From contig NMRA01000366.1 in NCBI GenBank assembly GCA_002633005.1, positions 198,319 to 262,318 on the forward strand: DNA of 64,000 bases. Direction: 5' to 3'. The position numbers and the translations under genes were made by a program. Below the pieces are notes generated by a model. It was not told the origin of the DNA and did no database searches. It worked only from the letters and a program-made list of their open reading frames with translations. Shown piece by piece: positions 36,369 through 62,272 of this stretch. Each line of letters starts with the position of its first letter. Position 1 is the stretch's first letter. Source of the DNA: Phoronis australis (taxonomy: Eukaryota; Animalia; Phoronida).

Positions 36369-36475
36369 CAGCTAGACAGACTAACCGCTAGACAGTGACC
36401 ACCGTCTCTAGTCAGCTAGAGACGGTGGTCACAGTGTAACAGCTAGACAGACTAACAGCTAGACAGACTAACAGC

Positions 36476-39887: not shown

Positions 39888-40225
39888 ATGGCAGCAGTTT
39901 GTTTGCATAACTCTTTCACCAAAAAAATGTTTCGGTTTTTATTTTTGAAGTTGAAACGACAACCAGGCCTGCTCTCCACATTTTGCTCAGCAAGTCTTCA
40001 GCCAAGGCAATGGAGTCAAAGAGTGCATAATAAGCTAACAATGAAACGTAGCTTGCAGAGAAACTGGTCGACTCCACAAAAGTTCAGCTCTGTTACTGCA
40101 AGTAGTCCGCCTATAACAGTGCTGGGGATAGAGACTAGCTGTGACGACACAGGTGTGGCTGTTGTTAACGATAGTGGTCACATTCTGGGTGAGGCACTGG
40201 TAAACCAAACGACAACACATCTACA
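39888..40225 (+). CDS. OSGEPL1: OSGEPL1 coding exon 1
   Basis: MAAV...VLGIETSCDDTGVAVVNDSGHILGEALVNQTTTHL; donor CA|GTTAAG, phase 2. Confidence 0.88.
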
Positions 40226-43200
40226 GTTAAGTTTTCCCTTTTAGAGTGAAGTTTAAACAGGTCACATTTCTTTATTGGAATTGTTTTGTGATGTACTTTT
40301 TGGAAATGGCTTGAATTCTACTGATGAGTTTTATGGTTTTTTGGTAACCTCAACACTTGAGAGGAGAGGGTTTAGGAGAAATGACAAGTGGTGGGTGTTC
40401 ACTTGTTATAAATACAGGAGAAGTTGACACAAAACGTATGAAATGACAAGTGGTGGGGGTTCACTTGTTATAAATACAGGAGAAGTTGACACAAAACGTA
40501 TGAAATGACAAGTGGTGGGTATTCACTTGTTATAAATACAGGAGAAGTTGACACAAAACGTATGAAACAAGTAGGAAAACAAATATGACTCCTGATTAAG
40601 CAACTGCTTGACCATTCTAGAACTATTCTCACTGGCTTTGTGACTTGGCCATTCTAGAACTATTCTCACTGGCTTTGTGACTTGGTCATTCTAGAACTAT
40701 TCTCACTGGCTTTGTGACTTGGCCATTCTAGAACTATTCTCACTGGCTTTGCGACTTGGCCATTCTAGAACTATTCTCACTGGCTTTGCGACAAACTTGG
40801 TGCTATATTCCATTACATAAGATTATGTCTTCATAACTGTTTCAGAGAAGTAAGCAGTGAACACGTTGGTATAATGGAGAGATAGCCAGATTTGAAGATT
40901 TAATTGGGCATTTCAGTGAAAAGGTCAACCTAAAGACAAAAAAAAATTAAATTTCTGATCTCATCTAAAAGCTTAGTTTCTAGTTTCAGGACCCATATTT
41001 AAATTTTCTATGATTTTGAATTTTTTTTAAAAAAAACCATTTTTGGAGGTCACATGTCCCTAAAAATTACCCCGATTTTTATGTGTGTTGCTAATTATTA
41101 TCATAAGTAGGCTAATTACGGGTACACTACTTTATTAAATTTGCGCAATCACATGAAGCCTAAAATTTCTAAACATGTCATTTGAACCGTAGAACACCGT
41201 CGACCTCTTTGGGTCAAAGTCCAACTGTTGGATATCATTGTGCCATACATCCATCACAAAGATGCTAAAAGGCTTATAGCTACATCAAAAGTTTTCAATC
41301 AAAATTAAAATAATTTCATATTCTCTTTTAACTTGCTAGTCAATACGATTGACCAATTTGAAACCAGGGATTATTTGTTAAGTCAGATTTCACGTGACTG
41401 ACTGACGTACAGAAAATTTGTACGTCTGTCACGTACCTTCGTCACACCCATAAATTTACAATTTTCAGACAATGAAAGTAACCTTAGGTCTTGTTTTCAC
41501 TTTCCAAACGTGCAGAAGACAAAATGTGTCTCGCACCTGAGAACCTGAAACAACTGAATATTACAAACACAACTATAAAATCATGTAAAGAAGTTGCTAC
41601 GCATTTAAACTAGATGCATTGTACTTTAAATTTCAGTTTCGAAGTATTACTGAAAAGTTGTACTTTACAGTGTAACCTAATTATTCGTAGTAGAATTCAA
41701 ATGGATAAAGTTAGACAGATGGACCACATAACAAAATGTAAATAAAAGAAAATGTTAATTTAAGTGTCCTGCATTTGTAAACTTGAGAGATCCTTAGTTT
41801 TTGGAAAATTGCAGAAGCAAAAAGTCACAAAAAATTTCATAAGGTACAAATTGATAGATTCTTATTTTTACAACCAGGAAAGCATAATACCTGACAGTTT
41901 CGGCTCCTGTCAGCAGCCATCTTTCGAAGTTTTCCGTCGGACTAAGCGAACACAGAAAGGAGCAGTCTCAGCGTAGGGTGACATGTTCAGAGAGGAGATG
42001 GTCTCAAGAGTTCTATTAACATATCTGCAGTCACTGATCATGTTCTTTGTTTTAATCAAAAGATATTTAACTAACTGGGATGATGGTTGTCCTGTTGAGT
42101 CGGAAAATAATTGAAGATCTAGACGAATAAGAGAGGCTATCTAGTGGGTCAGAAAAAAGTGACTCAGGAACAGGGACAATGGAGGGCATAAGTTGTCTAA
42201 GATTTGGAACAGCCTCATCACCACGCCACCTAGTGTTAAATAACTATGGAAGATGGCTGCTGAAATGAAGGTATGATGCTTTCGTGCTTGTGAAAATACG
42301 AAATTATCAATTTAGAAGCAAAAAGACATATAAAAGAATTTTTAAAGTGCTGTAGGAGGACTACATGTAAAGTTGCAGTTCTGCTGAAATCAACGAGTTA
42401 TTTCCACTCTAAACCGCTATATTTTGTATTGAAAAAGCCGATGCTGGACTTTTTTAAATGGTAGCAACCTGTGACCTACTTTATTAAACATTTTTGTCAC
42501 ACGTTCACTGACTAGTCACTCGGCTTGTGTTTTTCGGTGTCTTGGGTGGCTTGTATGAAGTGATTTCACAGCAAATGATTGAATCGTCTCATTTTACATG
42601 TTTTTGGCAAAACGAAAATCTTGATCTTACAATCTTTTTGAGAAAGATTATTTGTTTTCTAAGCCTCTGGAAGATTGAAATGAAAGAGGAAATTGCTGGA
42701 GACCATAGGAAGAACAAATGCGACTGAGAGAGGAACAAATATCTGCTGGAATGTTCTCTGAAACTCGGAAAAAATGCCATGATCGTGAATCAAAAAATTC
42801 ATAATTCTCTCTGCACGAACCATGATACAACTTTATTTTGCGCCTCTCTTTGAAATTGAAAAGAAGATATGTCACGAATTAAAAAACTAAATGAAAAAGA
42901 CAGCTAATCACTTGTAAGGACCAGCATCTCGTAATTTTTATCACTTTGACATATTCCTAAAAGGTAATCCTTAATTTAATGTAATTTGTCTGCAAGACCG
43001 TATCGGTGTAATATGAATGTTATAAGTCGATGCTGTCAACTGGACCATGCTGAACCAATTGTCTTCTTAACACGTTATAAGAAGATACTGAAGTCCTGTT
43101 ACAATACTTTTAAAACATCAAGTTGAATTTCTGGTTTGAGACCATGGCACAGGTTAATCACTATTGGCGCAAGGTTATCAAATGTGCACCAGATAAAATT

Positions 43201-46200
43201 TCGTAGTTTGTTGTTAAGAAACGAACAGTTTGAAGTTCTGTTTTGAAGTTGGACATTTCTTTATTTCCTACAGATGCCAGTCTCCAACTTTTTACTTGGA
43301 GGTTCCATACCCTCAAGTCTTGTTCGGACCTTGGAGGCAAGGTTTTGTCTGTAAAAATTGAACTTTGCATGCGTGGTCACATTTCATTGGCTGCTTCCTT
43401 TATTTGTGACTTGATGTTACAGACGTGGAGGCATCATCCCGCCTGTTGCCCGAGATCTTCATGAGCAATGCATTGAATCGACCACGCATCATGCACTTGA
43501 CCAAGCCAACATGTCTATCCAGGTGAGTTGAAATGATTTGATAGTCGTAATGACGTAAATTTGTCTAAGCTGACTATCTTTGGTTGTAATTGTCGACTCC
43601 AGATTAATTAATATTGCTTTGCCATACCCCAAATTCATTTGCCAACTGCAGATTTATTGCTTTGCTATACCCCTAATGTTATTTGTCAAGTATGGATTAA
43701 TAGTGCTTTGCTATACCCCTAATGTTATTTGTCAAGTATGGATTAATATTGCTTTGCCATACCCCAAATTCATTTGCCAACTGCAGATTTATTGCTTTGC
43801 TATACCCCTAATGTTATTTGTCAAGTATGGATTAATAGTGCTTTGCCATACCCCTAATGTTATTTGTCAAGTATGGATTAATAGTGCTTTGCTATACCCC
43901 TAATGTTATTTGTCAAGTATGGATTAATAGTGCTTTGCTATACCCCTAATGTTATTTGTCAAGTATGGATTAATAGTGCTTTGCCATACCCCTAAAGTCA
44001 TTATTGATTATAGTCTTGGCTGATTAAATTCTCCAACTAATATTCACAAATTCAGCCTTTGCTGTAGTTGTTCTTTTAATTTAATTTAAATGCTGAATGT
44101 TTTGTTTTGTCAGGATGTTAGTGCTATAGCTGTGACAGTCAAGCCTGGTCTGGGACTGTCCCTGGGGGTGGGGCTGGAGCATGCTAAACAGCTGGTCTGT
44201 GCCAGTGGCAAGCCGCTTATTCCCATCCACCACATGGAGGCTCATGCGCTCACAGCCCGCATGATTCAACTGTAAGGATTTCTAAGTACGGTTATTTCAA
44301 TAAGGAGTTCACAAAAGTTCTTAAAGTGCTTAAAATCACCAGTTTCGTGTCAAAAACATCAAAAAAAAAAACAACCCTACCAGTCGATCAGCTGTCAAAT
44401 TAAAACACCCGTAAACACTATGAGATGTTAATTTAGCTGATCTCGAGTTACGACCATTTATTGGTTTAATTTGTTTTGCGCCCATAGCTGTATCTCCTAA
44501 ACCCACTGCTGGATCTTTATTAAATTTAGTAAGTGTATTTATGTGAAGCTAACAACAGACAATGACGACTTTCAGGCGGATCAGCAATTTCATTTCATTC
44601 TGTTTTCCTTTGCTTCTCCAAAGTTCTGTGACAGATTTCTATGAAATTTGGTGAATAGCTTTCTATTAAAGAAGCTATGACATGTTCTCATTTCGGGATG
44701 GATTGTACGTTTTTGTGCCATCTAGTGGCCATTTTTATGACACAAATAAACAACCCTAAAAGCACACCGTTTGCGATGTTCGTGGGCGCATTTCAACGCT
44801 CGCGTTGCTCTTGTTTGTAAACTTATGTTCCATTTATTTAGGATTGAGTTCCCTTACCTCGTGTTATTGGCCAGTGGTGGACACTGCTTATTGGCTATTG
44901 CAAGAAATGTTAATGACTTTTTGCTGATTGGTCAAAGTTATGATGATTCACCAGGAGAGGCCTTAGACAAGGTGTGTATATTTTTTCATACGTTTAGAAT
45001 TACCTGCGACTTTTGAGGCAAGTTAATTTTTTCATATGGTGGAAACCCAAATGTATCACAACCTGCACTTTTTGTTATCCGCCCACATATCTATATGTGG
45101 ACGCATTATGCCGTCATCTCTGTCTGTCCGTCTGTCCGTCCGTCCGGGCGGCGTCCGGCGTCCGCTGCTCTATCTCCAAAACCCTTTGACATACGTTCAT
45201 GAAATTTGGCACATATGTTCCATTCATGAATGGGACGGCATGTGCGAACTTTCGGACGGATCCGATTACCGGTGTGCCCCCTAGTGGCAATTTTAGTTTT
45301 TTACGCTTACCTTTGTATCTTCAAAAGTCCTGAANNNNNNNNNNNNNNNNNNNNNNNNNNNNNNNNNNNNNNNNNNNNNNNNNNNNNNNNNNNNNNNNNN
45401 NNNNNNNNNNNNNNNNNNNNNNNNNNNNNNNNNNNNNNNNNNNNNNNNNNNNNNNNNNNNNNNNNNNNNNNNNNNNNNNNNNNNNNNNNNNNNNNNNNNN
45501 NNNNNNNNNNNNNNNNNNNNNNNNNNNNNNNNNNNNNNNNNNNNNNNNNNNNNNNNNNNNNNNNNNNNNNNNNNNNNNNNNNNNNNNNNNNNNNNNNNNN
45601 NNNNNNNNNNNNNNNNNNNNNNNNNNNNNNNNNNNNNNNNNNNNNNNNNNNNNNNNNNNNNNNNNNNNNNNNNNNNNNNNNNNNNNNNNTATGTGATGTT
45701 GACAACGGACGATGACGACTTTAGGGTGATTCTGACTACCGGTATGCCTCTAGTGGCAATTTTAGTATTTGCCTCTAGTGGCAATTTTAGTATTTTATAT
45801 TGACCTCTGTATTTTCATAGGTCTTCAGGTGTATACTTTGTGTTACTTCGTGACTATGAAGGAAAAGTTCCAAGTAGAAATTTGTTTCTGGCATTCTAAT
45901 GCTGTGCTAATCTCGTATGTTGGTAAATTTGTTCTTAATTCTTTCTGTGGTGCTTTAAGCAACTGGTGTATAGGATTTGCTTGTATTATGAAGATTACTC
46001 ACATTTTGCCCCTAGCCTATTGAGGAGACAATGACCATGCCTTTCCATTTTGCAAATTACAACATACTACATATATGCCCTCTACTGGCCACTTTATGGT
46101 ACCAATAAACAACCCTAGAAGGATACCATATGCGGTGCAATTGTGGGCGCATTTCAATGCTCTGCGTTGCTCTTGTTAATAATGTAGTCTTGTGCTTAAG

Positions 46201-49200
46201 TATTTTCAATAATATTTTTGTTTTTGTGGCTTCAAATTGTTGTCAGCTAATTTATCTTTATGTTTTAAGAAATACAGCATCCTTCATTCAACAAGCAATG
46301 GCAATTAGGAGCAAAATTATGAGTAGGCCTATTTGATAAATTAACGAAATTAAACTGTTTGTATATTAATATATTGTGGGCCAATGGCCCTATGAGTTTT
46401 GAATTAAACATTTTGTTGTTTGTTGTTTGTTGAAAGTCGAAAGTTGCTGGCAATGTTGTGGTCATGCCAAAGCAGATCATAAAATTTGCTCTGGAGTACT
46501 GTCTATTTATTTTGTATTGGACTTCAGAACTTTTCTGACATCATATAATTGCAAAAACTGAAGAAGTTTTAATGAAGATTATTTCAGTAAAGTGGTTTCA
46601 GCTGCTGATTTAAAGTCATGGAAATGTTTAGGCAATTTGACATTCGCGTTTATTAAATGTTTGAATATTATGTATTAACTAAACAATTTTTGTCATTCCA
46701 TCTGCATGTACTAGCATTTAGACAAAGAATCAGCCAGTTCCAAACATACTGTTGAATTGCAGACAGCTAGGCGACTTGGTCTGAAGAATATTCCAGAATG
46801 CTCCAGCATGCCTGGTGGAGCTGCCATTGAATACATGGCCAGGAAAGGTGACCCATGGTCATTTGCCTTGACTGAGCCACTGCTGAAGACTGCCAACTGT
46901 TGCTTCTCCTTCTCAGGTTTGAAAGAACAAGTCAGGAAGATTATAGAGAAAGAAGAGAGTAAACACGGTAAACAAAGACAAGTGTTAACCTTGTGTCTAA
47001 TATAGTCAAAAAAAGCAAGTCAGGCTGATTAAATAATTTTGAGAGACAACTACACCTTCCAATTTTTGGTTGGATTTGTTGTATTCTGAGCGACCGTATG
47101 ACCACTTTATGATTTTCCTAGAAGCACACTGTTTGCGTTACGGTCCTTGGTGCCTTTCAATGCTCCGCATTGCTCTTGTTAATACATGTATATTGTCTGC
47201 CCTTGCAGCGATCTACTAATTATTTTATTTACAAAATATCGTAAAACCACATCATTTACTTTTAACTTCAGTTTCTTGAATTAAGAATTCCTGGTTTTCA
47301 AATTTGGTTGTTTTTAATTTGTCCGCATTTATCAGAGCTTGACACTAACGAACGTCTGACCGTTTTGACAGCAGGTAACTAATTTGTTGTCAACCATCTT
47401 ATTCTTCAATTCAGTGGTATGTCTAATCAGCAAGTTAATGTCATTCAAAGCTTTATGTATAAATCATGCAGAGTTCACCTGAGCTTGATGACCAAGCTGT
47501 TTAACTCATCAGAATTTGAAAGCAGTTGTTTTACAAATTTGGAAGGAACAATGTTTGCTCGTGTCAATTATGAATTATTTTGTTGAATTCATTAATTACA
47601 GCGTGATAACTTGGGAAAGCAAGATTCTCACTCTGGAAAGTGACACTTTTGGTTTACTTGCCCAGCAGACTAGTAAAAAAATTATTTTTGTAGTACACGT
47701 TAAGCAGCTGAATGTATTATGTTGTCGGTAGTGATGTTTCATGATGTCACAGCACAGCTAACCATTTTTTTTCTAACTAGACAGAAAAAGTTTAACGACC
47801 AGTCAGGAAAGGTCTGTTAAGTTTTAGCTAACCTTACTGGCAACTTCAATGCCAACTTCTATGCAGACTCTTGTTGTAGGCTCTCTGCTGCCGACTAGCC
47901 CTTTGCAGGACCAGTTTTAGCGCCTCTGTCTGTTATCATTCGTCCAAGTTTCTCCGTTTTATATAGTGAAACTGCAACTTTATCGTGAATTATTTAATGC
48001 TTAGGAAAGGACATTTTCCAGGGCTTGGAATTTTCCGCGGAAACACGGATTTCCGCTTTTTTCAAATGTTCTGTCCGCGTATTTTATAATATTTCCGCGT
48101 TTCCGCGTAAAAAAACGGATTTGATATAAAATTTCCGCGGCAAATTTCTTTCTTACCGCCGCTTTGCCGACAACTTTCACCTCGAAAAGCGGAAGTTGCT
48201 CTTTATGTTTCGGAGGAACGTAAATTGTCAACATTGCCGGGGCATCTGGGATAGCATGGTGGATTTCCTCAATGGCGGCTCGTGTGATTGTAAACCGCGG
48301 CGACAAATACTACGACTCTGCAGCCAAAAATGTTTGGAGGCGGGAGTGGTGGACGAGCTAAGACAGACGCACGCTTCCGGAGGTGGTACCGTTTATTTTT
48401 ATTATTTTTTTTTTTAAATTTTTTTTTTTATAGTCCTCTCTCGATTTTTGTCGGCAAAAGGTCCACACCGGCTTTTTCAAGGCTGCCTGCGCGCATGTTT
48501 TGGGCCGTAAAAATTTCCGCGTTTTTCGCCATTTGTCATTCCAAGCCCTGATTTTCATACCCATTTTGCATAAAATATATCCAAACAAGATTTAATAATT
48601 ATGTAGACAAATCTTTTTTCATGTTCTATCGCGCGTTTTGTAAGAACAGTAAGTATGATTTGAATCGTGTGTTTAACGAGCAAGTTGTTAAACCAAAGTC
48701 ATTACCGGTGTGGCCACAGAATGCAATGCAAACAACACCATTCTGAGAAAACAATTTCATAAACATGTACAATGTTATTACCTATTGAGAATATGTGTGT
48801 AATCAGAATTGGTCATCAAATCTAGTTGACCATATTGCCCACTCAACGGTTCAGCAATTAAAAGTGAACAGCTAATCACTTGTAGCAGATCTTTGCTTGT
48901 CTGGTTGAGCCAGCTAGCCGATCGGTCGCCAAGTGGCTACCAATCAGTCGGAAAGAAACCTGTGACTAGTACTGTGTCGGTATACTGTAATGGAATTCAT
49001 CTCATTCTTGTCTCTAGGTGTAGCTGTGACTTGTACTGTGTCGGTATACTGTAATGGAATTCATCTCATTCTTGTCTCTAGGTGTAGCTGTGACTTGTAC
49101 TGTGTCGGTATACTGTAATGGAATTCATCTCATTCTTGTCTCTAGCTGTAGCTGTGACTTGTACGGTGTCGGTATACTGTAATGGAATTCATCTCATTCT

Positions 49201-52200
49201 TGTCTCTAGCTGTAGCTGTGGGATCTCTGCTGCCCAGTGTGGCAGACGTTTGTGCCTCTTTCCAATATGCCATTTGGCATCACATGGCAAGACGATTGCA
49301 GCGCTGCCTGTTGTTCTGCGAAATGAAACACTTGCTACCTGAGGAAAAGACACTGGTAAGTGACACACAACGTATAATGCTGGAAATTATTAAAGAGCTG
49401 CAAAATCATGTTTTGTGGAGAGGACAGAGTAGCTAAACGGTGCTATGCACTGCATTCTGGGTAATGACCATCTGCATGACAACTGCAGAGAAGGACCCAC
49501 AGGGCTGTCAACTGTTATGAATTGGATCCATATTCTACATGCTTACATGGCCTAATAAATCACTGGATTTTCAAATATTACTGAAGTAAAAGTGATTTTT
49601 ATAATTGTCTCTTTCAATGCGCCAGCTCGGTGAAGATTGAGGCAGGAAGTTTCAGAAAGTGGCAGAAATTGTTGCGGATGCGAGACTCAACCTATAACAT
49701 GTATCCTGAGTTCCAGTGTAGAATGCAATTTGCAAACACAATTTCCTTGTGTTGTTCAATTGTGGTTTTTGTGAAAAATAGCAGTTATGAAAAAATTTAA
49801 TGACTCAGTAAATTCCATTGCGAGTACACACACTGGAACAAACAAATGCAAACAACTTTCACTCGTTCGTTATGCAACCTCAGCAACCGCGAGATCAGAG
49901 TTTGCATTCCAAGGCTAGTGTTCTATGCATTTGGGGGGCGGTGGTAGTGTGGGAAGAAAAAACCAAGTTGACTTAAAAAACCTAAAGACATGGATGTGTC
50001 AAGATGAGGTATTATGTAATGTTGAGTTTTATTTGCGCACAATTTGAACTTGATTATTATTGTTCTTGTGTGTATAGCTCCATCTTGTGATTGAAACATA
50101 AACCTTCTGAAAATGTGTGAAATAAAGGTTTCACTTGCAAAATATGGATGTTTACGTGAAGATCACAGATTACTTGCTTAATGGGTTGCCAGCCCTGGAA
50201 ACGCAACTCTAAACTGGACAAGAATTATGAGCAAATCAAAGCACTCGGACCTGGAATAGCACTCAGACCTGGAATAGCACTCAGACCTGAATAGCACTCA
50301 GATCTCGAATAGCACTCAGACCTGGAATAATACCCAAACATGGAATAGCACTCAGACCTGGAATAGCACTCTGACCTATAGTAGCACTCAGACCTGTAGT
50401 AGCACTCAGACCTGTAGTAGCAATCAGACCTGGAGTAGCACTCAGACCTGGAGTAGCACTCAGACCTGTAGTAGCAATCAGACCTGGAGTAGCACTCAGA
50501 CCTGGAGTAGCACTCAGACCTGCAGTAGCTTTTACATCTGCAGTGGCACTCAGACCTGTAGTGGCACTCAAACCTGGAATAGCATGCAGACCTGGAGTAG
50601 CACTCAGGCCTGGAGTAGCACTCAGAACTGTAGTGGCACTTATACCATATAATAGCACTCAGACCTGCACTAGCACAACTGTTTTTCCTCTCAAGATAAG
50701 ATTGCGCTTATTTATTTATAAAACTGTGTATCACATGGAATGACTTGTTTGTCGTGTTGTAACCTAGGTGATCTCAGGGGGCGTAGCTAGTAACACGTTC
50801 ATCCGACGGAACATGGATATTGTATGTGAACAGTACAATTGTCGCGTCGTCTGTCCGCCACCACCTCTATGCACTGATAACGGTGTCATGATTGCCTGGT
50901 AGGTGTCAGGACAGCTGCAGAGTTTTAAAAGTCACTGCTTTCATGGTGTAACCGTTCTGGGAACCTGGTTCACAATCACATTTACTGGAGTCTTGTGAAG
51001 CTTTAAGTGGATCTGGCTGTCATACGTCATTGGTGTTGTTTTCTTTGATATATGTTGTAGCTGGACTGCACAGGATTTTGAGCAGGGGCTTTGGGTCTGA
51101 GCTTTGGTCTCATTTTACAATGCTTAGATTTGTATGGACGCAGTCAAACACTAAAACAGGGTATGGCAAAACTAGTTGTGTATTTTGCATGATTGTAATT
51201 GAAGCAATTTTTCTGCATTTCAAAACAATCGTTGATCTTTGTTATTCAAGTGTTTTTCTGTGCTCATCACTCATGGTGACATAAATGTCTTGAAAATACC
51301 TCTTTGATATAATTGTGTTTTAATTCACTCTTTTCTGTATAGGAATGGTGTTGAAAAATTCCGCCAAGGAATAGATATACTGGAACCTGCTGAGATCACA
51401 GATTTGAGGTATACTGCAAAGTAAGTGTCTTATTTGTATTAGTTGTATATTAAAGGCCCATGTAAAGTCATCCTTGAATACCTTTTGTTTCTTCCTTTGT
51501 GTTGGAAGCTTTTGGTTCATGCTTTGTGGTGGGCGCTTTTGTTTTCCGTTAGCATAACGTTATAACTAGTAAGGAACCAAATGGAGTTCATGGATATCTT
51601 TAGGGGAATGTTTACCACCACCATGTTCACGTTAATCAGTTAAAACTTGGGATTTTAATTGTGAGCAGAACCTTTCTTGTTGTCTTAATTTTCCTTAAAC
51701 TGCCGTACAAAATGGTACCCACCCCCTCCTTTAATTGTACATAGTGGTACCCACCCATCCTTTCACTGCAAAGTGGTACCCCCTCCTTCAACAACAAAGT
51801 GGTACCTACCCCTTCCTTTAACTACAAACTGGTAACCATTCCTCTTTTTATGCGCCCTCATATTTATATGTGGACGCATTATGCTCCTTTAATTATACAA
51901 AGTGGTACCCACCCATCCTTTCACTGCAAAGTGGCACCCACCCCCTTTTTCAACAACAAAGTGGTACCCACCCCCTTTTTCAACAACAAAGTGGTACCCA
52001 CCCCCTTTTTCAACAACAAAGTGGTACCCACCCCTTCCTTTAACTACAAACTGGTAACCATCCCTCTTTTTATGCGCCCTCATATTTATATGTGGACGCA
52101 CTATGCTGTCATCTCCATCCGTCCTGCATCCGCTGCTCTATCTCCAAAACCATTTATGTTCATGAACTTTTGCACACATGTCCCTTTCATGGATGGGTTG

Positions 52201-53907
52201 GCATGGCCGAACTTTCGGACGGATCCGACTACCGGTGTGCCCCCTAGTGGCAATTTTAGTTATTTACGTTTACCACTGTATCTTCAAAGGACAACATATT
52301 TTCACAAAATTTGGTATATAGGCATCTATTAGTAAGACGACGGTATCCTCCCGTTTTCGGATGGATTTGACGTAGTTTGCGCCACCTAGTGGCCATTTTT
52401 ACTGTTTTTGCGTGTTTTTTAGCCTCCACCCATCGATCAACCAAACCGCTCAAAGCCTGATTGTGAAAATTGGCATGACTGTGTTCTTACTATGAAGAGA
52501 ACGGTTAACGATCATGATTTTCTGACAACTTCGACTACTAGTATGACACCTCCTAGTGGCAGCTTTTTTTTGCGTCTATCGTTATATTTCCTAAACCGTT
52601 TGCAGGATCTTTACTATATTTAGTATGTGCACTTATATGACGATGACAACAGACAACAACTTTCGGACAGATCTGACAGCTAGTGTGCCACCTCTATATC
52701 TTCAAAGGACCTCAATGTATTTTCATGAAATTTGGTGTATAGGCTTCTGTTTGTGAGGTGACGCTTTATTTCCATTTTCAGATGGATTCGAGGTAGTTTG
52801 CGCCACCTGGTAGCCATTTTTACTGTTTTTGAGTCTGTTTTTTGGCGTCCACCGCTCTATCAACCAAACCGCTTTCACGATAATTGTGAAAATTGGCAGG
52901 TATGTTTTCACTATGAAGTGGACAGGTGATGATGATTTTCTGATAACTTCGACTACTGTGGCGCCTCCTAGTAGCAATTTCATTTTTTTTTGCGCCTACG
53001 ACTGTATCTCCTAAACCGTTAGTACGATCTTTACTAAATGTAAGAAGTGTGTTTATATGATGTTGACAACGGACGATGACAATTTTCGGAAGGATCTGAC
53101 TACTGGTGTGCCCTCTGAGGACTATTTTAGTATCTTCAAACGTCCTCAACTGATTTTCATAAAATTTTGAGTATGGGCATCTGTATCTCCTAAACACACT
53201 GCAGGATCTTTATTAAATTTAAGTTGTAAGTGTATTTATATGAAGCTAACAACAGACAATGATGGCCTTCGGGCGGTTCCAATGAACAGTGTGCCCCCTA
53301 GTGGCAATTTCCTTTTATTCTTTTTCCTTTGTTTCTCTGAAGTTCCATCATGGATTTCTATGAAATTTGGTGTATAGCTAAAGAAGCAATGACATGTGCT
53401 TGTTTTTGGATGGATTGCTTGTTTTTGGGCCATCCAGTGGCCATTTGTATGACACAAATTAATATCACTAAAAGCACACCATTTGCGATGCATTCGTGGG
53501 CGCATTTCAATGCTCCTGTACAAATTGGTAGCCATCCCCTCCTTCAGCTGTACAAAGTGGTGCCCATCTACCTCCTTTAACTGTACAAAGGGGTTCCTAT
53601 CACCATCCTTTCTTGGCAAAAAGCTGCTGTATTATTTCGTTGTTGAATTATTTAAATAGTGGGTGATAGTCCGGCAGGGTAGGGGCCTCCCCGTAGTTTC
53701 AATTTCCAGTGTTAAAACTGATGGAAGTTGAGTTGGTTGTTCCCTTTGATTTCAAGAGCTCCTAGCAGTCTTTTTTGTATGGTAATTCCAACATGTCTAA
53801 AAACTTCTTGTCTATTGATTTCCAGATGCCAACTTGGTGTCGATATTTGCCACGAAGTGTCAAAATCTACCATTAAAGTACCGAAGCTGATTGTTAAACA
53901 GCAGTGA
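39888..53907 (+). CDS. OSGEPL1: Mitochondrial tRNA N6-adenosine threonylcarbamoyltransferase (Kae1/TsaD/Qri7 family), 9 coding exons, 455 aa
   Basis: join(39888-40225,43423-43522,44114-44271,44842-44971,46763-46967,49210-49355,50768-50898,51343-51420,53826-53907) = 1368 nt. All introns are GT-AG and phases are consistent. Motifs: VLGIETSCDDT, GGIIPPVARDLH, PIHHMEAH (metal-binding HxxxH), LLASGGHC, DDSPGEALDK, FSFSGLK, SGGVASN, LCTDNGVMIAW. The N-terminal ~80 aa are R/K/S/L-rich with no acidic residues, consistent with a mitochondrial presequence, hence OSGEPL1 rather than cytosolic OSGEP. Confidence 0.93.
40379..40567. repeat. 62-bp tandem repeat x3
   Basis: ATGACAAGTGG at 40381, 40443 and 40505. 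Confidence 0.95.
40607..40792. repeat. 37-bp tandem repeat x5
   Basis: Unit CTTGGCCATTCTAGAACTATTCTCACTGGCTTTGTGA. Confidence 0.95.
41848..42313 (+). mobile_element. Penelope-like retroelement 3' fragment with inverted 5' pLTR copy
   Basis: Decayed GIY-YIG C-terminus SAVTDH..NWDD..E.N.RSRRIREAI..RNRDNGGHKLSKIWNSLI (~42020-42220). 41848-41925 is an inverted copy of 42247-42313. Confidence 0.7.
43423..43522 (+). CDS. OSGEPL1: OSGEPL1 coding exon 2
   Basis: TTACAG|A CGT GGA GGC ATC... = (Q)RGGIIPPVARDLHEQCIESTTHHALDQANMSIQ; donor CAG|GTGAGT. This frame is not in the ORF track. Confidence 0.92.
43600..43995. repeat. 46-bp minisatellite with 135-bp higher-order duplication
   Basis: Unit GGATTAATAGTGCTTTGCTATACCCCTAATGTTATTTGTCAAGTAT; variant GCCATACCCCAAATTC at 43621 and 43756. 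Confidence 0.92.
44114..44271 (+). CDS. OSGEPL1: OSGEPL1 coding exon 3
   Basis: DVSAIAVTVKPGLGLSLGVG...PLIPIHHMEAHALTARM; acceptor TTGTCAG, donor GTAAGG. Confidence 0.93.
44470..44815 (+). mobile_element. HINE copy 2 (3' portion)
   Basis: Monomer sequence and 3' end CGTGGGCGCATTTCAACGCTCGCGTTGCTCTTGTT. Confidence 0.8.
44842..44971 (+). CDS. OSGEPL1: OSGEPL1 coding exon 4
   Basis: IEFPYLVLLASGGHCLLA...DDSPGEALDK; acceptor TTTAG, donor AAG|GTGTGT. Confidence 0.93.
45075..46177 (+). mobile_element. HINE copy 3 (contains N gap 45335-45689)
   Basis: Both ends present; nearly identical to copy 1. Confidence 0.85.
46763..46967 (+). CDS. OSGEPL1: OSGEPL1 coding exon 5
   Basis: TARRLGL...GGAAIEYMA...CCFSFSGLK; acceptor TTGCAG, donor G|GTAAAC. 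Confidence 0.92.
47115..47180 (+). mobile_element. HINE copy 4 (3'-end remnant)
   Basis: CCTAGAAGCACAC...TTTCAATGCTCCGCATTGCTCTTGTT. Confidence 0.55.
48019..48550. mobile_element. hAT-like MITE with 6-bp TSD
   Basis: Perfect 13-bp TIRs CAGGGCTTGGAAT / ATTCCAAGCCCTG; ATTTTC at 48013-18 and 48551-56; CpG-rich with TTTCCGCG subterminal repeats. Confidence 0.85.
48960..49220. repeat. 64-bp tandem repeat x4 spanning the exon 6 acceptor
   Basis: CTCTAG ends at 49017, 49081, 49145 and 49209. Confidence 0.95.
49210..49355 (+). CDS. OSGEPL1: OSGEPL1 coding exon 6
   Basis: AVAVGSLLPSVADVCASFQYAIWHHMARRLQRCLLFC...EKTL; donor CTG|GTAAGT. The acceptor is the last copy of a 64-bp repeat; an alternative in-frame AG ends at 49215. 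Confidence 0.87.
49500..50197. mobile_element. Old hAT-like non-autonomous element
   Basis: TIRs CAGGGCTGTCAAC / GTTGCCAGCCCTG (12/13 match); TSD not recognisable. Confidence 0.5.
50240..50675. repeat. 18-bp minisatellite, >20 copies
   Basis: Unit AGCACTCAGACCTGGA(A/G)T. Confidence 0.95.
50768..50898 (+). CDS. OSGEPL1: OSGEPL1 coding exon 7
   Basis: VISGGVASNTFIRRNMDIVCEQYNCRVVCPPPPLCTDNGVMIA(W); acceptor CCTAG, donor TG|GTAGGT. Not in the ORF track. Confidence 0.93.
51343..51420 (+). CDS. OSGEPL1: OSGEPL1 coding exon 8
   Basis: (W)NGVEKFRQGIDILEPAEITDLRYTA(K); acceptor TTTTCTGTATAG, donor AA|GTAAGT. Confidence 0.88.
51705..52066. repeat. ~30-bp minisatellite (resumes at 53517-53610)
   Basis: Unit AAAGTGGTACCCACCCCCTTTTTCAACAAC. 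Confidence 0.9.
52067..53516 (+). mobile_element. HINE copy 5
   Basis: 5' hairpin, multiple monomers and 3' subTIR; inserted in a minisatellite. Confidence 0.83.
53826..53907 (+). CDS. OSGEPL1: OSGEPL1 last coding exon
   Basis: TTTTCCAG|A TGC CAA... = (K)CQLGVDICHEVSKSTIKVPKLIVKQQ*, matching the typical OSGEPL1 C-terminus (CPLGVDISxEV...IKVP). Confidence 0.88.
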
Positions 53908-54251
53908 TCTCCACAGGAACAATTCTGAGCCACATGACACAGCAGTGATTGACAAAACTGCCAGGATGTTTATTTCCAATCAAAGGGTGTGCATGTCTTG
54001 AAGACACTTGTGGTGTATGGGTGGTTAGAATGACATGTTTATAGCAGCTATAACTCATCCCTGGCAGCTGTCTCATTATTGTTTCCAGTGAAACATTACA
54101 TTTGTTAGATCATTGACCCAAGCTGAGCAGTGATGTCTGAATGACTTTCACTTTGTCAAAGTCATATGACATTAATTTGCTTTTGTTCAAGTTAGTTGTT
54201 TGTACATGAGGATAACATGAGTTATTGTGTTTTGTAATTTAACTTGTCTTG

Positions 54252-56007
54252 TTTTATTATGCGCGCACATATTTATATGTGGACACATTATGCCGTCATC
54301 TCCGTCCATCCGCCGTCCACTGCTCTATCTCCAAAACCCTTTGACGCACGTTCATGAAATTTTGCACATATGTTGCTATCATGGATGGGACGGCATGAGC
54401 GAAATTTCGGACGGATCCAAGTACCATTGTCCCCTAGTGGCAATTTTAGTTTTTTACGCTTATCTCTATATTTTCAAAGCTCCTAAAAGTATTTTCATAA
54501 AATTTGGCATATTAGGCACCTATTAGTGAGATGACGCTATCCTCGCATTTTCGGATGGATTTGACATAGTTTGCGCCACCTAGTGGCCATTTTTGCTGTT
54601 TTCGAGTTTTTCGGCGTCCATCCCACTATCAACCAAACCACTCTAAAGATGATTGTGGAAATTGGCATGTTTGTTTTTATTATGAAGAGGACACCTGACG
54701 ATGATTTTCCGATGATTTTGACTACTGTGGCGCCTCCTAGTGACAGTTTTGTCTTTTTGCGCCCATTGCTGTATCTCTTAAACCGTTGGCTGCATCTTTA
54801 CTAAATTCTGCAAGTGTATTTATATGATGTTGACAATGGATGACAACGACTTTCAGACAGATCTGACTACCGGTGTGTCCCCTAGTGGCAATTTATTTTT
54901 TCATGTTTACCTCTCTATCTTCAAAGGTCCTGTAGGTATTTTCAGAACATTTGGAATGTAGGCACCTAGTAGTGAGATGACGCTATCCTCCCATTTTCGG
55001 ATGGATTTGACGTTGCGCCACCTAGTGGCCATTTTTACTGTTTTTTAGTCTGTTTTTTCGCGTCGGCCCCTCTATTAACCAAACCACACTGATTGTGAAA
55101 ATTGGCATGTACTGTATGTTCTTACTACGAAGATGATGTTAATTTACCAATTTCTTGGACTACTGTGACACCTCCTAGTGGCAGTTTTGTTTTGTTTTTT
55201 TGCACCCATGACTGTATCTCCTTAACCGTTTGCAGCATCTTTGCTGAATTTAGCAAGTGTATTTATATGAGGTTAGCAATGGATGACAACAACTTTCCGA
55301 CGGATCTGACTTCCAGTGTGCCCCCAGTGGCAATTTTCATTTTTTAGGCTTACCTCTATATCTTCAAAGGTCCTCAACAGATTATCAGAATGTTTGGAAT
55401 ATAGGTATTTATTGGTGAGATGATGCTAGCCTACCGCTTTCGGATCGAATCGAGGAACTTTTGCGCCACCTAGTGGCATTTCTTCCTGTTTCCGTGTCTT
55501 GTTTTTTGCCGTCCACCCCTCGATCAACCAAACTATTCTGGAGATGACTTTGAAAATCGGTGTATATGTTCTCAGTGTGAAGAGGACGGTTGACAACACA
55601 TTCGACTACTGTAGCGCCTCCTAGTGGTAGTTATGTTTTGTTTTGCGCCCATAGCTACATCTCCCAAACTCACTGCAGAATCTTTAGTAAATTTAGTAAT
55701 TGCATTCATATGAAGCTAGCAACAGATGACGACGTCTTTCAGGTGGATCCAATGAAGGCTGTGTCCCAAAGTGGCAATTTCATTATTTTTTGTTTTTCTT
55801 TGTTTCTCTGAAGTTCCTTGACAGATTTTTATGAAATTTGGTAAATAGCTTTCTATTAAAAAAGCGATTGCATGTACCCATTTTGTGATGGATTGTACGT
55901 TTTTTCGCCCTCTGGTGGCTATTTTTATGAAACAAATAAACAACCCTAAAAGCACTCCGTTTGGGGTGCTTTCGTGGGCGCATTTCAATGCTTCCCATTG
56001 CTCTTGT
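54252..56007 (+). mobile_element. HINE copy 6
   Basis: Both ends present; about 11 monomers. Confidence 0.85.
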
Positions 56008-56983
56008 ATTTTAATAGGAAAGACATTATACTTTTTTTGTTCCATTTGCACTCAAAACGAGACATTTTCACACATTTTTGTATTTGAATCATAACCTTTT
56101 TGCAGCCCAAAAAATAGATTTCCCTAGTGGACAAAGCAAAAAATGTTTTTATCCAGCTTACCTCAATCATCTTGTACCAATGAGATAAATATAGAAGAGT
56201 TGAAGTCATGTGGTTTAGGATGATCGGAGTGGTCTGCCATCTTGATGAGTCTAGCTGCTGACTGTGTACTGTGTATATCTAGGAACTGGATTTCAAGTAA
56301 AAACTCGTAGCTTTAATGTTAAGATCATCAAGTGCAAACTAGGATTTTTAGAAAAATCATCCAAGGAAATCAGAACATACTTGAGCATAGAATTAAAGAG
56401 TCAACACTTGTCTTTAGCTTGTATTAAATTTCCAGGTATAGCGGAAAACAACAAAAGTAAAGTTTGAGTTCCAGTATAAAGATTAGACCCAGAATCAGTG
56501 ATATAATGTTTTGGTCTTTCAATGTTTCAAAAATTGAAATTGTAATAAAATGATTTTGTGGGTGAGAATCCGGTCATAGAACCAGCTGTTCAACTTCATT
56601 TGGTCCCTAGAACACCCACTTAAGTTGAGGTTTCATGGTCTTTTACTTGACTTTCCTTCTTTGTCCGATATGTCTTTAAGGGTTTAGTGACCTTATTCTC
56701 TCCAAGATATCTGTTGTTTCCTAGCAACGAAGAAACGCAAAAAGTGACCACAAGATCTGATAGTTGTATATTTTTACAGAGTGGACACCAATTCGAAGAT
56801 TTATTAAATATAGCCACATTATTAGGGTTGGAAGGAAGGGATACCCCCAAGAATTGCTACACCCCACAATGCTATGGGTCGGTAGATGGGCTGTTTCTGT
56901 AGATTTCATGACATGGGACAAATGTTGTGTAGCCTTGCAAGCTATTCAAATCTGCAGCTGTCTTTTTTTGAGGAAAACCATCA

Positions 56984-59092
56984 TTTTTATGCGCCCACAC
57001 ATTTATGTGTGGACGCATTATGCCGTCATCTCCGTTGGGCGTCCGTCCGGCGTCCGCTGCTCCATCTCCAAAACTCTTTGACATACGTTCATGATATTTG
57101 GCACATATGTTCCTTTTATGAATGGGACGGCATGACCGAACTTTCGAACGGATCTGAGTACCGGTGTGCACCCTAGTGGCAATTTTAGTTTTTTACGCTT
57201 TTGTATCTTCAAAAGTCCTTAACCGATTCTCATGAAATTTGGTATGTAGGCACCTATTAGTGAGATGACACTATCGTTTTCGGATGGATTTGACAAAGTT
57301 TGCGCAACCTAGTGGCCGTTTTTACCATTACAGCGTTCTGTTGTTCAGCAACTTTTCCAGACGTGAGGACTGCGTGCGATAACATCTGGCTTTTTTGTTA
57401 ACTGCCCAGCTCAGTCTTTTGTCCCGTATGTTAACAAGCAGGTCAATTATCCTCCAGGCTTCAAAGGAAACGTATGGTGGTTGCACGCTATTTCCGCACG
57501 CGTATTCAGAACGCAGTTGGACAGAATAGATTGTTGTAGTTGGGCGATTTTGGTGATTCAAAAACTAAACATGATCAGCATTTGACGAGGAATTCAGAAA
57601 TGCTATTGGTTTAAGCTCAAATACGTTATAGCTCAACTTTCATTTTTATCAGCCCAGCCCAGTCAGGCTAGATATGATCTGATCGGAGATTAGAGCAATT
57701 ATCAACAAAAGAGCGCAGGCCCTCCAACCATAAATGCCAGAATGGAGTTAATCAGTCGTGTAAGATATTGGCTACGGGGGGGGGGTAAACTTTCCAACTT
57801 GTTGTTGGGCTATAGAATCGAACAAGTTGTGAGCAACGGGATGTCGCCGTCATGCTGTTTTCGAGTTTTTTGCGTCCACCCCTCTATTAACCAAACCGCT
57901 CAAAGGAAGATTGTGAAAATTGGCATGTGTGTTTTTACTATGAAGTGGACATCTGACAATGATTTTGCAATGGCTTTGACTACTGTGGCGCTTCCTAGTG
58001 GCAGTTTTGGTTTTTTGCGCCTATCGCTGTATCTCCTAAACCGTTCACAGGATCTTTATGAAATTTAGTAAGTATATTTAGATGATGTTAAGAACAAACT
58101 ACGACGACTTTCGGACCAATCTGAGTGCTGGTGTGCCACCTAGTGGCAATTTTATTTTTTTTACGTTTACCTCTCTATCTTCAAAGGTATTCAACGTATT
58201 TTCATAAAATTTGGCGTATAGGAATCTATTTATGAGATGTCGCTATCTCTCCGTGTTCAGATGAATTCGACCTAGTTTGCGCCACCTAGTGGCAATGTTT
58301 ACTGTTTTCGAGTTTTTTTACGTCTTCGCATCTATCAGCCAAACCCTTTTCAGGATAATTGTGAAAATTGGCATGTATGTTTTTACCGACTGTGGAGTGG
58401 ACGGCTGCCGATGATTTACTGACGACTTCGACTACTGGGGCGCCTCCTAGTGACAGTTTTTTGTTTTGCGCTCATGGCTTTATCTCCTAAACTGTTTGCA
58501 GGATCTTTACTTAATTTACCAAGTGTATTTATATGATGTTGACTACGGACGACGACGACTTTCGGACAGATCTGACTATTGCTGTGCCCCCTAGTAGCAA
58601 TTTTAGTTTTTTAGGTTTAACTCTGTATCTTCAAAGGTCCTCAACAGATTTTCATAGAATTTTGAATATAGGCATCTTTTGGTATGATGACGCTATCTTT
58701 CTGTTTTTGGATGGAATCGAGGTATTTTGCGCCACCTAGTGGCCAGTTTTGCTGTTTTCAAATCTTGTTTTTGGCGCCCACCCCTGTATCAGGCAAATCA
58801 TTTGAAAATTGGCAAAAGAGTTCTCAGTGTGAAGACTATCTTTGATGATGGTGATTGACTACTGTGGCGCCTCCTCGTGGTAGTTTGTTTTGCGCCCATA
58901 GTTGTATCTCCTAAACCCACTGCAAGGTCTTTATTAAATTTAGTAAGTGTATTTATATGAAGATAGCATCAGATGTCGACGACGACTTTCAGGCGGATCC
59001 AACGGACACTGTGCCCACTAGTGGCAATTTCATTTTATTCTGTTTTCCTTTGCGTTCGTGGCTGCATTTCAACGCTCTGCGTTGCTCTTGTT
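56984..59092 (+). mobile_element. HINE copy 7 with nested insertion
   Basis: Both ends present; about 10 monomers, interrupted at 57326-57854. Confidence 0.85.
57326..57854. mobile_element. Nested MITE-like insertion
   Basis: Splits the HINE string TTTTTAC/TGTTTTCGAG. Imperfect ~30-bp TIRs CATTACAGCG..GTTGTTCAGCAACTT / AAGTTGTGAGCAAC..CGCCGTCATG. Confidence 0.65.
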
Positions 59093-60510: not shown

Positions 60511-60519
60511 TCTATTCAA

Positions 60520-62272
60520 TTTTTATGCGCCCACATATTTATATGTGGACGCATTATGCCGTCATCTCTGTCCGTCCGTCCGTCCGTCCGTCCGTCCGTC
60601 CGTCCGTCCGTCCGTCCGGGCGGCGTCCGTCCGGCGTCTGGCGTCCGGCGTCCGCTGCTCTATCTCCAAAACCCTTTGACATACGTTCATGAAATTTGGC
60701 GCATATGTTCCATTCATGAATGGGACGGCATGTGCGAACTTTTGGACGGATCCGACTACCGGTGTGCCCCCTAGTGGCAATTTTAGTTTGCTTACCTTTG
60801 TATCTTCAAAAGTCCTGAACGGATTTTCATGAAATTTGGTATGTAGGCACCTAGTAGTGAGATGACGCTATCCTGCCGTTTTCGGATGGATTCGACATAG
60901 TTTGCGCCACCTAGTGGCCATTTTTACTGTTTTCGAGTCTGTTTTTGTGCTTCCACCCCTCTATCAACCAAACCGCTCAAAGGATGATTGTGAAAATTGG
61001 CATGTATGTGCTTACTATGTAGAGGACGGTTGACGATGNNNNNNNNNNNNNNNNNNNNNNNNNNNNNNNNNNNNNNNNNNNNNNNNNNNNNNNNNNNNNN
61101 NNNNNNNNNNNNNNNNNNNNNNNNNNNNNNNNNNNNNNNNNNNNNNNNNNNNNNNNNNNNNNNNNNNNNNNNNNNNNNNNNNNNNNNNNNNNNNNNNNNN
61201 NNNNNNNNNNNNNNNNNNNNNNNNNNNNNNNNNNNNNNNNNNNNNNNNNNNNNNNNNNNNNNNNNNNNNNNNNNNNNNNNNNNNNNNNNNNNNNNNNNNN
61301 NNNNNNNNNNNNNNNNNNNNNNNNNNNNNNNNNNNNNNNNNNNNNNNNNNNNNNNNNNNNNNNNNNNNNNNNNNNNNNNNNNNNNNNNNNNNNNNNNNNN
61401 NNNNNNNNNNNNNNNNNNNNNNNNNNNNNNNNNNNNNNNNNNNNNNNNNNNNNNNNNNNNNNNNNNNNNNNNNNNNNNNNNNNNNNNNNNNNNNNNNNNN
61501 NNNNNNNNNNNNNNNNNNNNNNNNNNNNNNNNNNNNNNNNNNNNNNNNNNNNNNNNNNNNNNNNNNNNNNNNNNNNNNNNNNNNNNNNNNNNNNNNNNNN
61601 NNNNNNNNNNNNNNNNNNNNNNNNNNNNNNNNNNNNNNNNNNNNNNNNNNNNNNNNNNNNNNNNNNNNNNNNNNNNNNNNNNNNNNNNNNNNNNNNNNNN
61701 NNNNNNNNNNNNNNNNNNNNNNNNNNNNNNNNNNNNNNNNNNNNNNNNNNNNNNNNNNNNNNNNNNNNNNNNNNNNNNNNNNNNNNNNNNNNNNNNNNNN
61801 NNNNNNNNNNNNNNNNNNNNNNNNNNNNNNNNNNNNNNNNNNNNNNNNNNNNNNNNNNNNNNNNNNNNNNNNNNNNNNNNNNNNNNNNNNNNNNNNNNNN
61901 NNNNNNNNNNNNNNNNNNNNNNNNNNNNNNNNNNNNNNNNNNNNNNNNNNNNNNNNNNNNNNNNNNNNNNNNNNNNNNNNNNNNNNNNNNNNNNNNNNNN
62001 NNNNNNNNNNNNNNNNNNNNNNNNNNNNNNAAATTTGTTTTTAATTCTATGTTTCTGTGGTGCTTTAAGCAACTGGTGTATAGGATGTGCTTGTATTATG
62101 AAGATTACTCACATTTTGCCCCTAGCCTATTGAGGAGACAATGACCATGCCTTTCCATTTTGCAAAGTATGCCCTCTACTGGCCACTTTATGGTACCAAT
62201 AAACAACCCTAGAAGGATACCGTATGCGGTGCAATTGTGGGCGCATTTCAACGCTCCGCGTTGCTCTTGTTT
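60520..62272 (+). mobile_element. HINE copy 8 (contains N gap 61039-62030)
   Basis: Both ends present; expanded (GTCC)n; nearly identical to copies 1 and 3. Confidence 0.85.

Follow-up and report, generated by a model that had tools for sequence, protein, structure and literature searches.

Organization of the locus

The window, that is, the whole 64,000-nucleotide stretch of Phoronis australis DNA that we analysed, contains an OSGEPL1/TsaD-like gene and copies of a repeat family that lie around and within it (Table 1). The span from 54252 to 59092, described as a Helentron-type element in a sequence-only reading, was found to consist of two separate copies of HINE type (non-autonomous Helentron). 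We retain the name copy 6 for the first of them. It starts inside that gene's 3' UTR, and a spliced contig extends to 54295.

Table 1. Features of the window, with the starts of the motif slots in the two main arrays
Feature	Coordinates	Strand	Remarks
Younger complete family copy	34175..35265	+	Slots A, B, C, terminal; different tail
OSGEPL1/TsaD-like host gene	39890..54295	+	Pfam TsaD hits below cut-off, GT..AG joints, spliced contig, translation
Exons of this gene	44111-44271, 44842-44969, 46761-46966, 49209-49354, ...-50897, 51342-51421		
Last exon of this gene	from 53826		Stop 53905-53907
Family 3' fragment	44461..44814	+	Intronic
Younger family copy	45073..46177	+	Intronic; assembly gap 45335-45689
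Older family copy	52068..53515	+	Internal deletions; in last intron; 5' end duplicated at 51846
HINE-type copy (copy 6), complete	54255..56007	+	Termini located
5' subTIR and inverted-repeat arm (hairpin), copy 6	54259..54288	+	2 substitutions
Central array, copy 6	54402..55920	-	11 motif slots; CTCF consensus reads on - strand
Slots of copy 6, first half	A 54427, B 54573, C 54730, A 54875, B 55015, C 55168		
Slots of copy 6, rest	A 55318, B 55463, C 55614, terminal A 55761, last slot 55905		55318 one base deleted; 55761 degenerate
3' subTIR, decayed palindrome and CTCTTG-T end, copy 6	55974..56007	+	subTIR GTGGGCGCAT
Second HINE-type copy	56985..59091	+	3' tail shortened; insertion inside
5' subTIR/IR hairpin, second copy	56989..57018	+	Intact; -11.5 kcal/mol, z -5.03, 0/200 shuffles
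Central array, second copy	57140..59030	-	10 motif slots
Slots of second copy, first part	A 57166, B 57302, C 57988, A 58133, B 58279		
Slots of second copy, rest	C 58440, A 58584, B 58729, C 58867, terminal A 59011		
Unrelated insertion, ~530 bp	57325..57856	.	Imperfect ~30-bp terminal inverted repeats; interrupts second copy
3' subTIR, palindrome and CTCTTG-T end, second copy	59058..59091	+	subTIR with 2 changes
Younger family copy	60521..62270	+	Long perfect (GTCC)n; assembly gap 61039-62030

The HINE/Helentron-type anatomy that had been proposed was borne out at both ends of the element. ATGCGCCCAC was seen at the 5' end of six copies and GTGGGCGCAT at the 3' end of seven, giving subterminal inverted repeats (subTIRs). 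The 5' inverted repeat pairs with the subTIR (DINE-1 type), and the resulting hairpin folded with z of -5.0 and -5.1 in two copies and was decayed in a third; that of copy 6 is weak (z -0.03, as against -5 in intact copies). At the 3' end a palindrome stem, CAACGC-nnn-GCGTTG, was present in both the MFE and the centroid structure of two of the three copies folded, with weak energy (z -2.5 and -1.0); in the second copy it reads CAACGC-tct-GCGTTG (59070-59084). Behind the 5' module lies a microsatellite, (GTCC)16 at 60570-60633 and a degenerate GTCC-type stretch at ~54300-54320 in copy 6, together with central tandem repeats, for which TRF gave a 443-bp period at 54405-55742. The flanks are T-rich and mutually unrelated at both ends. 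Within the window we saw no autonomous Rep-helicase-endonuclease element bearing these ends. The insertion in the second copy is likely a MITE; it has no second copy in the window, and it is covered by reads and contigs that originate at other loci.

Dispersal and RNA of the family

Both ends of the copy at 34175..35265 were set by contigs with unrelated T-rich flanks, at 60-78 records per run for 34173-34175 and 100-112 for 35265. The family is therefore dispersed to many loci, as had been claimed, with 60-112 contigs of unrelated flank at each end; these counts are a lower bound on loci, since a spliced contig in one run makes the runs look like transcriptomes. For the same reason, depths of ~3e5 vs ~5 were rejected as a measure of genomic copy number. 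Exact-pattern scans of metagenome contigs, prokaryote genomes and viral contigs gave no further copies, and Rfam gave 0 hits in 51000-64000.

RNA of the family favours one strand by ~36:1. An internal promoter is disfavoured as its sole source: starts and ends did not pile up, and the contigs run in from many 5' flanks. We regarded the read starts at 55627 and 58875 as priming or alignment effects.

A CTCF-consensus motif in the repeat unit

Across the 21 slots of the two copies we observed the cycling of monomers A, B and C that had been described, with every slot in the same orientation. The five motif starts quoted earlier also hold: B is exact at 54573, 55015 and 55463, and one base departs from the quoted string both in C at 54730 and in A at 54875 (GCGCCTCCTAGTGA, GTGTCCCCTAGTGG). 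With up to two mismatches allowed, 32 matches were found in the window, all on the + strand (0.56 expected; 0/100 shuffles). The monomers are spaced at 136-161 bp, with a mean of 146.5 over 18 intervals, and the three-monomer period is 427-452 bp.

The CTCF match was scored with published consensus strings and not with a position-weight matrix. Six of the two copies' 21 slots matched at 14/14 and 13 at 13/14 or better, and two were degenerate (55318, 55761). When all scored slots were compared with the core consensus CCASYAGRKGGCRS, 15/36 matched at 14/14 and 27/36 at 13 or more, a scoring that leaves out five further degenerate slots. That five A slots are degenerate, with at least one A slot missing altogether, we count against a CTCF reading. 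Every one of the 15 exact CCASYAGRKGGCRS matches in the window lies inside the elements, and the last slot of the 3' fragment (44715) is another perfect CTCF variant. Read on the - strand, B equals a published CTCF 'super motif' at 18/19 bases; A is identical to the core of the reference site with which mouse CTCF affinity was measured. The identification with published CTCF sites, and the observation as a whole, are confirmed; the interpretation placed on it is partly supported.

Conservation of the motif

The motifs had been judged by eye to be among the best-preserved parts of the monomers. Their preservation does significantly exceed that of the remaining monomer sequence, although it is nearly reached by two other boxes (4.5% and 5.8% mismatch, as compared with 3.1-7.6% for the three motifs). 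Mismatches numbered 28/497 within motifs and 521/3970 outside, and 0/326 circular shifts were as low. With p-values that are optimistic here and below, because they come from 13 rows of one window related by descent, tree parsimony placed 19 changes in 48 motif columns and 424 in the remaining 403, ~2.6-fold fewer per column (p 1e-6), and 17/44 against 323/351 when only non-CpG columns were used (p 6e-5). Columns invariant across A, B and C made up 12/14 of the motif and 56/129 elsewhere (p 0.0015); the best non-motif window of 14 columns had 11.

These figures could also be obtained if the motif were one of several slow boxes of the HINE satellite, kept by effects of sequence-dependent mutation, conversion or array recombination, with a CTCF match that is an accident of the founder and no functional binding. 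The two other boxes agree with this, as do oyster HINEs, whose otherwise dissimilar monomers are described as having common conserved segments (available text of PMC7492417), and the sequences are few and related. At this base composition, one Mb of repeat consensus should contain ~0.1 exact consensus matches, so that over many genomes some families would carry one. However, the motif is G/C-rich, yet G/C columns are the fastest elsewhere (non-CpG G/C 21/314 vs 185/1109). Diagnostic class differences persist inside the motif, which indicates that it has not been homogenised across classes, and they follow CTCF degeneracy, since 6/7 of the variable motif positions are CTCF-degenerate (p 0.002). 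We regard the slow-box reading as unlikely.

In older copies the motif had changed as little as the transposition termini (21/338, 6.2%, and 8/135, 5.9%), against 466/3243 (14.4%) for the rest; in young copies the values were 0/84, 2/135 and 54/751. Such equality with the termini would also be expected of a selected, iteron-like site for the Helentron's own Rep/zinc-finger protein, or of a site for a host zinc-finger protein other than CTCF. Class C fixes one non-consensus base that is disfavoured by the CTCF consensus, 5/17 class-level alleles at variable positions fall outside the consensus-permitted set, which speaks against a CTCF reading, and no upstream motif of vertebrate type was evident by eye. 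On the other hand, a binder other than CTCF would make a coincidence of the 18/19 super-motif match and of the CTCF-permitted alternatives at five degenerate positions, and oyster HINE arrays, described as mutually unrelated, are ill-suited to a fixed transposase site (available text of PMC7492417). This alternative seems to us quite improbable.

Changes confined to single copies were distributed differently, with 12 at CTCF-fixed and 6 at degenerate positions. When the alleles in non-CpG columns were divided into shared and singleton ones, the excess conservation of the motif was of marginal significance (p 0.05 and 0.13). Sequence constraint tracks CTCF specificity in this small and related sample. 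Since class differences sit at degenerate positions while single-copy mutations fall anywhere, the pattern points to selection on the motif in the transposing lineage and to decay once a copy has inserted. Among the 40 of 163 variants listed, none lay in the motif; as ~1-2 were expected, this is no evidence either way.

Methylation, nucleosomes and boundaries

In vertebrates, bound CTCF sites are surrounded by a locally unmethylated zone. Judged by CpG retention, no such halo exists at the motifs studied here: CpGs were kept at 61/109 within 25 bp of a motif and at 54/93 farther away, and those beside the motif decay normally. A shield against methylation is not supported by these counts, and the accessibility proposed below would not come about through local hypomethylation.

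Two proteins bound at sites 147 bp apart leave no space for an intact nucleosome between them. Monomers of 140-180 bp are moreover usual in oyster HINEs, where no link to CTCF is reported (the main text of PMC7492417, as available, never mentions it). On both grounds, the reading of the 'nucleosome spacing' as CTCF phasing is unsupported.

The copies might serve the host as dispersed insulator clusters that set boundaries or barriers, their sites being preserved in place by host selection. The CpG of the motif itself was kept at 17/19, as compared with 108/180 elsewhere (p 0.012), and singleton changes are somewhat rarer in motifs (p 0.054). In lamprey and zebrafish, sites carried by transposons are occupied by CTCF, and Helitron minisatellites of C. 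elegans act as barriers by a CTCF-free route (available texts of PMC5504073, PMC7182764, PMC9341505; bioRxiv 10.64898/2026.08.08.743475). However, 12/18 single-copy mutations hit CTCF-critical positions, and after insertion the motifs decay like the termini. For the CTCF motifs of protostomes, echinoderms and lancelet, a 2026 preprint reports loop and insulation scores at baseline, and invertebrate CTCF motifs show little phasing. Because of these baseline scores and of decay that ignores CTCF-critical positions, the suggested remodelling of boundaries is unsupported, and we consider preservation by the host improbable.

A possible role of CTCF in copying of the element

We give a probability of roughly one half to the following reading: the family is a non-coding HINE-type element whose ~147-bp repeats were each founded on a CTCF-consensus site, a site to which host CTCF likely binds and which likely persists since binding would raise the rate at which a copy is multiplied. 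On sequence grounds, the element likely uses CTCF for its own copying rather than for chromosome boundaries. We take the host to possess CTCF on account of its bilaterian ancestry; CTCF orthologues have been reported from molluscs and annelids, flatworms lack them, and the CTCF motif ranks top in annelid open chromatin. In a FoxAB tree the host grouped weakly with ambulacrarians (80/87), a position that is not firm, and the best BLAST hits were lophotrochozoan.

The ancestral monomer would already have contained the site, and its amplification would have produced the A-B-C higher-order repeat. In master copies the monomers may then have drifted to 59-66% identity, with the site changing almost only in ways that CTCF tolerates. 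Several same-facing sites could attract CTCF in the germ line, which may keep the donor element within reach of an autonomous Helentron's Rep-helicase. Constraint on the motif would end after insertion, and host insulation would be an occasional by-product, with the conservation having another cause.

A stronger and more tentative version, which we hold to be doubtful, is that the transposon, of rolling-circle type, has come to depend on host CTCF as a cis-requirement of its life cycle: the satellite would be a docking array selected like the termini, and the shared orientation of its sites would determine how the element can be oriented within a transcribed gene and so the ~36:1 strand bias of the RNA. 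If so, it would be a non-architectural use of CTCF in invertebrates, with hundreds or more natural insertions for testing invertebrate CTCF.

The family is a high-copy element with a textbook CTCF site in its repeat unit, held as tightly as its transposition signals. It links, in a testable way, two questions: the reason for satellites in HINEs, and the function of CTCF in invertebrates, which seem not to use it as a loop anchor. If bound, the arrays would supply this genome with CTCF sites on a large scale, motif-based surveys of invertebrate CTCF would be biased, and insertions that are polymorphic would serve as natural experiments on clustered CTCF sites.

Relation to known elements

The family resembles the HINE/DINE-1 elements of Thomas, Vadnagara and Pritham (2014, PMC4067079) in its 5' subTIR with nested inverted repeat, microsatellite, central repeats, 3' subTIR, 3' palindrome, T-rich flanks and lack of coding capacity. 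It differs from them in that no autonomous element with the same ends was seen in the window; the subTIR core is 10-11 bp, as against 11-15 bp in published HINEs (PMC4067079, PMC7492417). The term 'insulator' is absent from the available text of PMC4067079. Cg_HINE of the Pacific oyster, as described in the accessible text of PMC7492417, likewise has a GTCC-type microsatellite and, between its end modules, short dispersed arrays whose monomers measure 140-180 bp, as well as conserved boxes common to diverged monomers. In this text-only comparison, the three-monomer higher-order repeat and the CTCF-consensus site in each monomer set the present family apart.

Canonical CTCF motifs are also spread by the lamprey hAT-Tip100 repeat 274 (PMC5504073) and by zebrafish TDR13B, HATN9_DR and SINE3-1a (PMC7182764, PMC9341505). 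These are vertebrate cut-and-paste elements or SINEs with demonstrated binding, whereas ours is an invertebrate element of rolling-circle type whose motifs are known from sequence; the available texts on them describe no tandem array of ~10 same-facing sites. The PATC barriers of C. elegans Helitron minisatellites (bioRxiv 10.64898/2026.08.08.743475, available text) share internal tandem repeats in rolling-circle elements, an intronic position and a proposed anti-silencing role, but act through bending with a 10-bp period, in an animal that lacks CTCF, in contrast to the discrete protein-binding consensus seen here.

Our searches of the open-access literature turned up no report of Helentron repeats that contain CTCF arrays. 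Helitron-marked supersized sperm loops have reportedly been described in Xenopus tropicalis by Shi et al. in 2023, a case that resembles the present one in that a Helitron family is tied to 3D chromatin features.

A CTCF-motif array in a HINE-type element

We observed that the element, a non-coding family of HINE type (non-autonomous Helentron), is present in the window as six copies with both ends, besides three partial sequences, and that all nine face the + strand (see table). Each copy has the same order from 5' to 3': a T-rich start, ATGCGCCCAC with a nested inverted arm, a GTCC-type microsatellite, a central array, and a 3' end module of GTGGGCGCAT, a short palindrome and CTCTTG followed by T. 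The inverted arm folds strongly in intact copies (z -5.0 and -5.1) and is decayed in the copy at 54255. This anatomy is that given for DINE-1/HINE in the available text of PMC4067079, and the features described for oyster Cg_HINEs in that of PMC7492417 also match, the oyster monomers being compared by text description. The end modules, microsatellite, array and palindrome support the Helentron/HINE-type identity proposed by the sequence-only reading.

Coordinates of features in the window
Feature	Position	Strand	Remarks
Two-ended copies (n = 6), starts	34175, 45073, 52068, 54255, 56985, 60521	+	Found by window self-comparison; assembly gaps break two
3' fragments	44461, ~47080	+	
Duplicated 5' end	51846	+	Within the 30-bp minisatellite
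Elements making up 54252..59092	54255-56007, 56985-59091	+	
Foreign insertion, ~530 bp	57325-57856		Just 3' of first B motif in second element's array; imperfect ~30-bp terminal inverted repeats; likely a MITE
Exact 25-bp duplication of one-base-deleted A motif	34826-34876, 45745-45795		Array end, younger subfamily
30-bp minisatellite	51705-52071, 53516-53611		Both sides of copy 52068-53515
Lone CTCF-like 14-mer	42221-42236	as in elements	Two mismatches to super-motif core; outside annotated elements
Intronless forkhead gene	15552-16526		Best matches lophotrochozoan FoxAB-like proteins
OSGEPL1/TsaD-like gene	from about 39890	+	
THAP-domain ORF	37324-38242		Pfam PF05485, E 8e-6; adjoining opposite-strand ORF
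Second dispersed repeat family	62692-64000, 32181-32483, 36109-36824	both	RNA from both strands

Both ends of copy 34175-35265 were fixed by aligning public sequencing runs. In each run 60-78 contigs run out of the 5' end and 100-112 out of the 3' end; the T-rich sequence that they enter is unrelated among contigs (agreement 0.37-0.41). Read depths on this copy were rejected as copy numbers, since a spliced contig shows run X1, which bears the label 'DNA?', to be transcriptome-like. Copy 52068-53515 looks as if it had landed inside the minisatellite, with partial re-duplication afterwards. In the younger subfamily, the 3' tail beyond the 25-bp duplication is unlike that of older copies.

Three classes of monomer and motif (A, B and C) cycle in the array. 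The motif pattern occurs 32 times in the window, always on the + strand, where 0.56 matches were expected; the five positions quoted earlier were confirmed, two with one-base variants. Motifs lie 136-161 bp apart (mean 146.5, 18 intervals), with a three-monomer period of 427-452 bp. The nucleosome-like spacing claimed before thus stands as a measurement, but is no evidence of phasing, because HINE monomers usually have this length, and because it corresponds to a nucleosome core with no linker.

On the - strand, B agrees with a published CTCF super motif (bioRxiv 2026.09.16.752217) at 18/19 bases, and A is identical to the 14-base core of the site that a mouse CTCF affinity study used as its reference (PMC5694663). 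Against the consensus CCASYAGRKGGCRS (PMC6746451), 15 of the 36 scored slots (expected motif places) matched fully and 27 at 13 or more positions; outside these 36 are five more A slots, degenerate, and another A slot that is deleted. Exact matches in the window were all inside elements (15/15), as were 27/28 at one mismatch. Within 54252..59092, 13/21 slots matched at least 13/14 positions. Class C has a non-consensus A fixed at the K position. The 18/19 identity, the shared core and the full matches agree, at the sequence level, with the proposed CTCF-consensus identity.

HINE satellites are known, and so, separately, are CTCF sites carried by transposons (PMC5504073, PMC7182764, PMC9341505). 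The available text of bioRxiv 10.64898/2026.08.08.743475 proposes C. elegans Helitron minisatellites as CTCF-free barriers, whereas the motifs here are CTCF-consensus. In the open-access literature, largely surveyed at title level, we found no description of Helentron repeats that carry CTCF arrays. Judged by its sequence, the CTCF-motif array in a HINE-type element is a real observation.

Conservation and decay of the motif

To define units, the array was cut at a box preceding monomer A rather than at the motif. Among few rows, related to one another, mismatch to the majority was 28/497 within motifs against 521/3970 elsewhere, and no circular shift was as low (0/326), confirming the suspected excess preservation. 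The motif was still better preserved with gaps counted (43/512 vs 650/4099) and with CpG columns dropped (26/459 vs 389/3451). Tree parsimony gave 19 changes over 48 motif columns and 424 over 403 outside (10/13 rows). The classes are 59-66% identical, with 12/14 motif columns invariant vs 56/129 elsewhere. Two non-motif boxes (mismatch 4.5% and 5.8%) and one non-motif window (11/14 columns invariant) weigh against the motif being special, and the shared/singleton split without CpGs was marginal (p 0.05, 0.13).

Class majorities and four variants of the last slots, at the array end, differ at 6/6 degenerate consensus positions and one fixed position (p 0.002), and 12/17 alleles at class-variable positions are consensus-permitted. 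Single-copy changes fell 12 times at fixed and 6 times at degenerate positions, near the 8:6 expectation. Difference from the majority in motif, terminal signals and the rest was 6.2%, 5.9% and 14.4% in three older copies, and 0%, 1.5% and 7.2% in three younger ones. The simplest reading would be that constraint acts on motif and termini alike for as long as a lineage transposes, and that both decay afterwards.

CpG decay was strong across the whole monomer, with no weakening close to the motif (kept: 61/109 near, 54/93 farther). The arrays are therefore likely methylated in the germ line, without a protected halo, which does not support the idea that they shield the element from methylation. 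The CpG inside the motif was kept in 17/19.

A possible role of host CTCF

In our main reading, with a probability of about one half, a predicted host CTCF would bind the array and the bound copy would be preferred as transposition donor; host gene, binding and copying gain are all presumed. The earlier proposal, that the family spreads insulator boundaries, is the weaker reading because published loop and insulation scores at invertebrate CTCF motifs are at baseline. The available text of bioRxiv 2026.10.19.760054 reports this for protostomes, echinoderms and lancelets, with weak phasing at fly motifs, and that of PMC7854359 describes the motif in an annelid as mostly single and promoter-bound. 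For one spiralian, a squid, the accessible part of PMC10658182 reports TADs whose boundaries carry a CCCTC-like motif.

Strand bias and genomic setting

According to RNA joints and a spliced contig, three copies lie in introns of the OSGEPL1/TsaD-like gene, and copy 54255 starts within its 3' UTR. In run X5, another public run, 28,600 of 12.75 million reads mapped to the copy at 34175 with 80% likeness. First mates lay on - over + by about 36:1 (family-wide reads, 34188-35268), a ratio that may be raised by a small number of abundant transcripts. In the + strand host gene, too, spliced reads have their first mates on -, so the family RNA corresponds to the element's + strand. Both strands are represented among the reads of a different repeat, at 62.7-64 kb. 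Since family reads exit through many flanks, this RNA appears to come from read-through of copies that almost always lie sense to host transcription, and in such copies the CTCF consensus faces upstream. Neither T-rich targets (T/A 1.11 in the gene region) nor AATAAA counts (4 in sense, 10 in antisense) seem strong enough to explain the bias alone.

The FoxAB-like gene lies ~23 kb upstream of the OSGEPL1-like gene. Its homologues in molluscs, brachiopods and annelids are all equally distant (52-60% across the greater part of its length), and despite its best matches its tree position is unplaced. The host is a bilaterian invertebrate. The THAP-domain ORF pair is probably a DNA transposon remnant.
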